A stretch of 64,000 nt of DNA. Origin: a phage. The stretch lies in sequence record OR896157.1. One strand, 5' to 3'. A model generated the notes under the pieces. That model saw nothing but the letters and a program-made list of their open reading frames with translations, was not told the DNA's origin and searched no databases. Below, piece by piece: positions 15,507 to 15,956 of the stretch. The position numbers and the translations under genes were made by a program. The first letter of the stretch is position 1. Each line of letters opens with the position of its first letter.

Positions 15507-15956
15507 CTATTTCTCTTGAAGCATTTTGCGTAAACGATAGAGCTGATTACAAAATTCCTTTTCAGTCAAAACTGTTTCAGAGATTTTGTTCTTGCCCATA
15601 CTGTGGGTTAATGTTGCGTTACGAGTAGCAATCAATGCTTTTTGGAATCCAGTGTTTTGAGCAAGTGCGTCATAAGCTCCAGTTAAAAGATTCTGGTATG
15701 CTTCAGATGCTCGATGAATAGGAACACCCTTCCAATAAAGTGTTTGAGTAGGCCACCAACGCTTCTTCTTACCTTTGAACTTTGCTGCCTTTCCAACCAA
15801 TGTGCAAACATGAGCTTGCATTTCAGGGTTAGAAAATTTGAGGGATTGTAAAAATCCCTCCATTGAAGCACATTCTACACCATCATAAACGAAAGCATGT
15901 GGTGCAAAGTTACTTAAAGCACAAGAAGGATATGAACTTCCAGAGCCAATGTCCAT
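15507..15956 (-). CDS. NADAR (YbiA-like) domain protein
   Basis: ALSNFAPHAFVYDGVECASMEGFLQSLKF and NLLTGAYDAL match NADAR signature blocks. Confidence 0.55.
   Translation of the reverse strand: MDIGSGSSYPSCALSNFAPHAFVYDGVECASMEGFLQSLKFSNPEMQAHVCTLVGKAAKFKGKKKRWWPTQTLYWKGVPIHRASEAYQNLLTGAYDALAQNTGFQKALIATRNATLTHSMGKNKISETVLTEKEFCNQLYRLRKMLQEK

Follow-up and report, generated by a model that had tools for sequence, protein, structure and literature searches.

An AdfN (gp30.3)-family NADAR gene in the tRNA cluster of a Karamvirus-type phage, and its predicted action against DarTG1

The open reading frame at 15507..15956, on the minus strand of the 64,000-nucleotide stretch of phage DNA analysed here (sequence record OR896157.1; hereafter the window), is assigned from its sequence as the gene for AdfN (gp30.3), a predicted minimal, stand-alone NADAR-fold enzyme. 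Here we establish the family to which it belongs, its fold, orthology and synteny, and show that it is full length with its catalytic residues conserved. The best explanation of the gene, which we hold to be very probable, is that its product erases the guanine marks laid by DarT1, as a guanine-ADP-ribose DNA glycohydrolase. The window derives from a T4-like myovirus of the PG7/Karamvirus type (an Enterobacter phage), and the 3-kb stretch around the NADAR gene shows 98.6-98.9% identity to SonariX, vB_Ecl_id4496, PG7, vB_EclM_AS6 and others. The window also encodes a macrodomain protein orthologous to T4 Tk.4/AdfM, to which we assign, with somewhat less confidence, the erasure of DarT2 thymine marks.

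Identity and fold of the NADAR protein

The gene comprises 149 codons from an ATG start to a TAG stop, exactly filling 15507..15956 (-), and its 149-aa product matches Pfam PF08010 (Phage_30_3) with 200.3 bits against a cut-off of 36 (E=1.4e-59), over positions 2-137 of the 138 in the model. By tblastn, gp30.3-like homologues were found at 1,513 places in 1,510 phage records, indicating a single copy in nearly all, and an exhaustive HMM search of a global protein set gave 1,429 clusters of the gp30.3 family at 50% identity. The PF08010 score, together with this number of records and clusters, establishes a real gene rather than a chance ORF. In BLASTP comparison the protein is 43% identical over its full length to T4 gp30.3 (X53848; E=2e-35), and the alignment runs to T4 residue 152, the last residue. 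Its closest relatives are 98-100% identical to it.

Three residues that are invariant in an alignment of 34 homologues align with those of the T4 active site. Glu33 (codon 15858..15860 (-)) corresponds to E36 of T4 AdfN, E43 of PnNADAR and E88 of E. coli C7 DarG1, a catalytic residue that binds the distal ribose (PMC11825919, PMC11543638). Lys40 (codon 15837..15839 (-)) corresponds to T4 AdfN K43, PnNADAR K50 and E. coli C7 K95, which coordinates phosphate (PMC11543638); both of these codons were checked. His118 (codon 15603..15605 (-)) lies in the last beta-strand, aligned with T4 H123, in the context LTHSMG here and LKHSIA in T4. A His in the last strand defines the phage NADARs (gp30.3), where YbiA has Glu and DarG1 Asp (PMC11125620, PMC11543638, PMC12945103). 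The first-pass annotation had read a NADAR domain at these coordinates from two signature blocks. Its main block is present as LSNFAPHAFVYDGVECASMEGFLQSLKF, which contains Glu33 and Lys40 as an E-x6-K unit that also aligns with the SEHYFQAQKF block of YbiA, although the pattern as written lacked one residue of the spacer that follows YDG. The second block, LLTG, does occur (residues 89-92) but is not a family motif, the consensus among the 34 homologues being LLxR; the true third signature is instead the invariant His of L-T-H-S (H118).

The protein could be linked to the NADAR fold only through a fold search, an hhalign comparison and family members that served as a bridge. Contrary to what a direct domain assignment would imply, the Pfam NADAR model PF08719 gave no match at E<=1, the family match being to Phage_30_3, and phmmer searches of all PDB sequences with the single sequence and with a 34-sequence profile returned no NADAR chain. 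YbiA is the top structural match. When the family profile was compared by hhalign with YbiA of E. coli MG1655, the SNF..DG..E..FQ..KF block was aligned (E=1.1e-4, probability 56%); the alignment stops one residue short of H118 and, if extended, places H118 opposite the Glu of YbiA 'LVEH'. Two family members, P0309 and P0328, match PF08010 and PF08719 over the same residues, with E-values against PF08719 of 4.9e-6 and 1.6e-4, under the gathering score. The protein also shows weak matches to TIGR02464 (YbiA-type N-glycosidase; E=0.062) and to a PADLOC defence-candidate model (E=3.8e-4). Its structural model is confident and includes a C-terminal helix at residues 132-148. Together with the invariance of E33, K40 and H118, these matches bear out the NADAR domain first suggested. 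The placing of gp30.3 proteins among the NADARs goes back to the original bioinformatic definition, which the AdfN/AdfM papers cite.

A profile search for bacterial NADAR relatives returned, among the 150 matches listed, core gp30.3 proteins in every case (E<1e-37). Some gp30.3-family metagenome proteins are longer (P0249, P0313, P0322 and P0300; 400-560 aa), with gp30.3 domains in tandem or with LRR, Lgt or FtsW-like regions at the N-terminus; they may be true fusions or artefacts of gene calling. The fusion partners of long family members were considered and set aside: they are heterogeneous (LRR, Lgt, FtsW-like, D-Ala ligase-like), possibly artefacts, and uninformative.

Among characterised proteins, T4 AdfN is the closest counterpart. 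Besides the Pfam family, the window protein shares with it a core-only NADAR fold, the catalytic Glu/Lys/His, an intact C-terminal helix, a usually single copy and an early-region location. The NADAR domains of DarG1 (E. coli C7; Geobacter/Trichlorobacter lovleyi; PDB 8bat) differ in that Asp takes the place of the last-strand His and that they are extended at the N-terminus, the extension making an electropositive DNA channel; they are encoded beside DarT1, whereas no toxin gene accompanies the phage protein, which is an orphan. YbiA (PDB 2b3w) and PnNADAR (8bau) have Glu at the discriminating position, occur in metabolic or LexA-regulon contexts, and are 18-19% identical to the phage protein.

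Position of adfN within the tRNA cluster

The NADAR gene is the fifth of six tightly packed, co-oriented ORFs (15279..17335 (-)) that lie between groups of tRNA genes. The upstream boundary of this block is tRNA-Met(cat) at 17306..17382 (-), and the first tRNA downstream is tRNA-Arg(tct) at 15061..15138 (-), within a Thr/Leu/Cys/Arg block at 14804..15138 (-), all identified by ARAGORN and Rfam. Beyond tRNA-Met, ARAGORN calls a further 14 as far as 20057, every one of them on the minus strand; that at 17977..18071 is doubtful. The stop of the upstream ORF abuts the NADAR ATG, and the downstream ORF begins 3 nt past the NADAR stop. The five neighbours match only PHROGs of unknown function, and no Pfam match reached threshold for any of them. 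Promoter and terminator matches around the gene were fewer than in shuffled sequence, with one hairpin inside the CDS. A 62-aa ORF at 15683..15871, in the same relative frame as the overlapping ORF 30.3' of T4, showed no similarity to T4 gp30.3' and was treated as chance.

The first-pass annotation had placed the gene in a tRNA-flanked island. The tRNA genes on both sides are real, but the idea that the block is recent foreign DNA found no support and was rejected, since its GC content (0.37) is near that of the window (0.40), giving no sign of recent acquisition, and since other genera share the arrangement. The order Met...adfN...Arg(tct) is also found in Jiaodavirus pzk-kv4 and Tulanevirus 50AhydR13PP, and in Tegunavirus phiR1-RT the adfN homologue lies just upstream of tRNA-Met; the tRNA-flanked arrangement is old and common to several genera. 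T4 adfN, by contrast, belongs to the 30.x cluster beside DNA ligase, and the window gene further differs in having no 30.2/30.4 neighbours, no conserved overlapping 30.3' and a different host genus. In T4, VR7, Acinetobacter phage Maestro and Slopekvirus phT4A the gp30.3 gene is a few genes upstream of DNA ligase (directly before 30.2 in the first three), and the phT4A homologue is 76% identical to the window protein. Genes for homing/HNH endonucleases adjoin the gp30.3 homologue in Aeromonas phage 50AhydR13PP (L007, 1321..2073) and Escherichia phage phT4A (L008, 3139..3456), and these may relate to mobility of adfN between the ligase and tRNA loci.

Several further features of this region were noted. 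In the doubtful 95-nt 'tRNA-Met(cat)' of ARAGORN at 17977..18071 (-), an acceptor stem and a canonical T-arm, GGTTCGAATCC, occur together with a long extra arm of 10 bp, and the predicted fold is stable (MFE -33.4 kcal/mol, z=-3.6). At gathering score the Rfam tRNA model was silent, the sole match being to tRNA-Sec (18.7 bits, E=0.16), and the near-identical phage COW86c carries no annotation for this tRNA; an unusual type-II-like tRNA is one possibility, a tRNA-like RNA another. At 20067..20151 (-) Rfam recognises a tRNA (39 bits) missed by ARAGORN, where COW86c has tRNA-Tyr(gta). Two ORFs a short way upstream of the NADAR gene encode very acidic proteins, one of 165 aa with pI 4.05 and 34 Asp+Glu (16405..16902 (-)) and one of 73 aa with pI 4.1 (16184..16405 (-)); neither has a Pfam match, both match only PHROGs of unknown function, and their charge is typical of anti-defence proteins of the DNA-mimic/inhibitor type. 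The TTG start of the ORF at 16913..17335 (-) overlaps tRNA-Met; COW86c annotates this long, overlapping version, and an ATG within the ORF, at about 17287 (MIYYGCTH...), is more plausible as the start. A 281-aa ORF with a TTG start at 13657..14502 (-) contains a long low-complexity stretch rich in Ala/Pro/Lys, KAPKEPKAAAVKAPAPKAAPAVKPAAPVQTPKATPAPK, and has no Pfam match.

The macrodomain protein

The ORF at 1699..2154 (-), which had been proposed to encode a macrodomain, proved real, and its 151-aa product is an orthologue of T4 Tk.4/AdfM and a stand-alone macrodomain of the ALC1-like (TARG1/DarG/Poa1p/SCO6735) class, predicted to be a thymine-ADP-ribose DNA glycohydrolase. Its match to Pfam Macro (PF01661) reaches 18.7 bits against a gathering threshold of 22, and many close homologues carry a precomputed PF01661 match. 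The ORF matches phrog_335 (7e-64) and is 51% identical to Tk.4 of T2 and T4 over its full length (E=1e-61), with the motifs H-G-x-N, NLYTQ and PRIGxG invariant; the NLYTQ motif is the same in T4 and T2 Tk.4. Profile searches recovered the macro fold, with matches to BT1257 (1e-17), TARG1/OARD1 (6e-16), Poa1p (7e-15) and SCO6735 (1.8e-14), and to the DarG macrodomains of M. tuberculosis (1.7e-10) and T. aquaticus (4.8e-9). None of the outcomes that would have refuted the first-pass annotation was seen: the NADAR fold with its catalytic residues and the macro fold were both recovered, and a counter-defence role has been demonstrated by experiment for the T4 orthologues. Gene order is vs-tk.4-tk.3-tk.2-tk.1-tk in T4 and T2, and the window macro gene is tk-proximal too; it differs in directly overlapping the start of the thymidine kinase gene (tk), tk.1-tk.3 being absent, and in not having vs upstream. 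Immediately upstream of the window macro gene, three ORFs (2151..2570, 2567..2893 and 2893..3441, all (-)) take the place of vs, which precedes tk.4 in T4 and T2; in order of transcription they encode an SLT-domain transglycosylase (PF01464, 4e-5), a protein with a lipoprotein-like N-terminus (…LSGC) and one with a signal-peptide-like N-terminus; RegB lies at 3460..3930.

The macro domain had been equated with the antitoxin domain of DarG. The class is correct, as the ALC1-like macro fold includes DarG, but the catalytic position carries Gln81 (codon 1912..1914 (-), checked) and not Lys. Gln81 is invariant in the Tk.4 family and, in the profile alignment to TARG1, stands opposite the catalytic lysine (TARG1 K84, DarG K80), while A123 stands opposite TARG1 D125. 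DarG2 proteins (M. tuberculosis, 5m3i; T. aquaticus, 5m31) have Lys80 and a C-terminal DarT-binding domain, whereas the window protein has no second domain; its score with the DarG NCBIfam model is 20 bits, where the cut-off is 250, and no darT or toxin gene was found next to the macro gene, which is flanked by tk and by two ORFs with secreted or lipoprotein-like products. Lacking the catalytic Lys, the DarT-binding domain and an adjoining toxin gene, the protein is not DarG; Gln81 at the catalytic-Lys position makes it a stand-alone, Gln-type ALC1-like macrodomain. In this it resembles SCO6735 of Streptomyces coelicolor (PDB 5e3b) and BT1257-type proteins, which are likewise stand-alone, of the ALC1-like class and with Gln at that position. 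SCO6735 has Gln85 there; it hydrolyses thymidine-ADPr efficiently but not guanosine-ADPr, and either change, Q85A or Q85E, makes it inactive (PMC9411070); the equivalence of Gln81 and Q85 is by transitivity through TARG1 (PMC9411070), not by direct alignment. Besides acting on dT-ADPr, SCO6735 can rescue cells from DarT; it differs from the phage protein in being bacterial and DNA-damage induced, in an extra mobile loop, and in a low identity detectable by profile (E=1.8e-14).

In T4, tk.4 is the only gene needed specifically on DarTG2 hosts, a result confirmed with a clean knockout, which leaves T4 sensitive to DarTG2, and leading to the name adfM; hydrolysis by T4 AdfM is itself proposed or inferred only (bioRxiv 10.1101/2025.11.20.689424). 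In vitro, DarT2 marks are removed by a PhiKZ macrodomain that likewise bears the name AdfM (PMC13309987); this protein (gp104) is imported into the phage nucleus, a structure that T4-like phages are without. ICP1 AdfB was considered as an analogue and set aside, being a DarT binder and not a macrodomain. AdfM of the window phage would remove the thymine-N3-ADP-ribose laid by DarT2, using a Gln-dependent (SCO6735-like) active site and not a Lys-dependent (DarG/TARG1-like) one.

Predicted function and alternative readings

Erasure of DarT1 marks is assigned to the window protein by analogy with T4 gp30.3, which was renamed AdfN by Johannesman et al. (Nat Commun 2025; PMC11825919). T4 AdfN has the NADAR fold, and the purified protein strips ADP-ribose from DarT1-modified DNA; without adfN, T4 and T2 cannot plaque on DarTG1 hosts; RB69 is rescued by expression of AdfN, its natural allele being impaired by a 15-residue C-terminal truncation in which the C-terminal helix is lost; E36A and K43A impair the T4 protein, which is without effect on DarTG2 (all PMC11825919). 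Hydrolysis of dG-ADPr by T4 AdfN in vitro has also been reported (PMC11125620). By the mechanism that we propose, infection of a DarTG1 host would lead DarT1 to use NAD+ to place ADP-ribose on guanine N2 of the phage DNA, which would stop replication and transcription. AdfN would then bind the ADP-ribose, with Lys40 holding the diphosphate and Glu33 and His118 at the distal ribose, and would hydrolyse the N-glycosidic bond, so that ADP-ribose is freed, guanine is restored and replication goes on. T4 AdfN is fully active only during T-even infection (PMC11825919), and transfer of the function to Karamvirus and Enterobacter is therefore assumed. An identity of 43% leaves room for a shift of substrate or context, and a literature search on DarTG1 in Enterobacter gave nothing useful. 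A conserved partner gene was considered as the 'T-even factor' that AdfN needs and rejected, since the small ORFs abutting the starts of gp30.3 homologues in six loci are mutually non-homologous; because the abutting ORFs differ between loci, no conserved AdfN partner emerges.

The location of the gene among tRNA genes, seen in four genera, raises the question of whether RNA is its substrate. The protein might mainly protect phage tRNAs or transcripts by removing guanosine ADP-ribose left by RNA-targeting ART toxins, its position reflecting that role. T4 NADAR does clear guanosine-ADPr from RNA in vitro, if less actively than the NADAR of E. coli C7 (PMC11833690), and tRNA guanosine can be modified by ScARP and Scabin (PMC12945103). 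We nevertheless regard this as very unlikely. The sole in vivo phenotype demonstrated for the family is against the DNA-targeting DarT1 (PMC11825919). Linkage to tRNAs is not a property of the gp30.3 family, because the copies of phT4A (at 76% identity), T4, VR7 and the Acinetobacter phage lie near DNA ligase and not near tRNAs. The tRNA regions of T4-like phages are, moreover, general hotspots of small accessory genes. A slim chance remains for a related, broader proposal, that the AdfN lineage encoded in tRNA clusters (Karamvirus, Jiaodavirus, Tulanevirus, Tegunavirus; 43% identity to T4 AdfN) differs in function from the T4 enzyme, being independent of the T-even-specific factor and acting also on RNA/tRNA guanosine-ADP-ribose, so as to shield the phage translation apparatus from RNA-targeting ADP-ribosyltransferase toxins. 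That the ORF is a decayed allele like RB69 gp30.3, kept as a reservoir or for an unrelated function, is highly improbable. Inactive anti-DarT alleles do exist, namely the frameshifted RB69 AdfN and RB69 AdfA with R164 (PMC11825919), and some relatives gave split or shortened tblastn matches (H36, H33). The window ORF, however, is intact to the last T4 AdfN residue, with its catalytic residues intact and invariant, the C-terminal helix present in a confident model and close relatives at 98-100% identity.

The protein might instead have a metabolic function, or a self-directed one: it could work like YbiA, as an N-glycosidase acting on riboflavin intermediates or on free derivatives of ADPr, or erase by-products of the phage transferases Alt, ModA and ModB. 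This would fit with YbiA as top structural match, with the weak TIGR02464 match, and with phage NADARs being early genes expressed together with ARTs in T4-like phages (PMC9503650). It is extremely unlikely in our judgement, as the discriminating position is occupied in the gp30.3 family by His, where YbiA-type enzymes have Glu (PMC11125620), and the T4 orthologue has a clean and specific DarTG1 phenotype (PMC11825919). Reversal of DarT1 marks stays the preferred explanation of the NADAR gene. We know of no NADAR activity on protein Arg-ADPr, which also counts against a self-directed role. As regards the macro protein, it could be an ADP-ribose-1''-phosphate phosphatase or an O-acetyl-ADP-ribose deacetylase in RNA repair or NAD metabolism, as the GenBank label 'phosphatase' would have it, and not a DNA de-ADP-ribosylase. 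Yeast Poa1p, an Appr1p phosphatase, is among its best macro matches, T4 tk.4 is annotated 'contains A1pp phosphatase motif', and macro homologues have been named O-acetyl-ADP-ribose deacetylase. We consider this unlikely and favour the removal of DarT2 marks.

The first-pass annotation had joined the two genes in a counter-defence against DarTG-type systems. That reading is supported in substance and its observation confirmed: the T4 orthologues act against DarTG1 (AdfN) and DarTG2 (AdfM). There is no linked module, the genes being 13.4 kb apart; adfN and adfM are independent early-region genes and not an operon or system. Each enzyme is predicted to be base-specific, the NADAR for guanine (DarT1) and the macrodomain for thymine (DarT2), and we infer that the pair, at 43% (AdfN) and 51% (AdfM) identity to its T4 orthologues, keeps their activities in Enterobacter hosts. 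This biology is already published for the T4 orthologues (AdfN in 2024-25, AdfM in 2025-26), and our result is a correct re-derivation, not a discovery. In most of the records inspected the homologues of AdfN and AdfM are labelled 'hypothetical protein' or 'phosphatase', and a few are named 'gp30.3' or 'macro domain protein'. The homologues in Erwinia phage COW86c (L005) lie at 3596..4051 and 17008..17457. The same early region also encodes an Acb1 anti-CBASS phosphodiesterase (21493..21951 (-); PF23474, E=1.2e-58) and an Acb2/Tad1-type cyclic-nucleotide sponge (4213..4494 (-); PF24729, E=7.8e-15), so that, with AdfM and AdfN, a span of 22 kb holds four anti-defence genes that can be recognised.

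Annotation in the databases has not caught up with the literature of 2025, and both genes can be annotated, as AdfN-like (anti-DarTG1) and AdfM-like (anti-DarTG2). Two points hold mechanistic interest, namely the Gln-for-Lys active site of the whole Tk.4/AdfM family and the variable position of adfN; both leave the current view of DarTG counter-defence unaltered. These candidate therapeutic Enterobacter/Klebsiella phages carry at least four recognisable counter-defence genes, a set that is relevant to the prediction of host range against strains with DarTG or CBASS.
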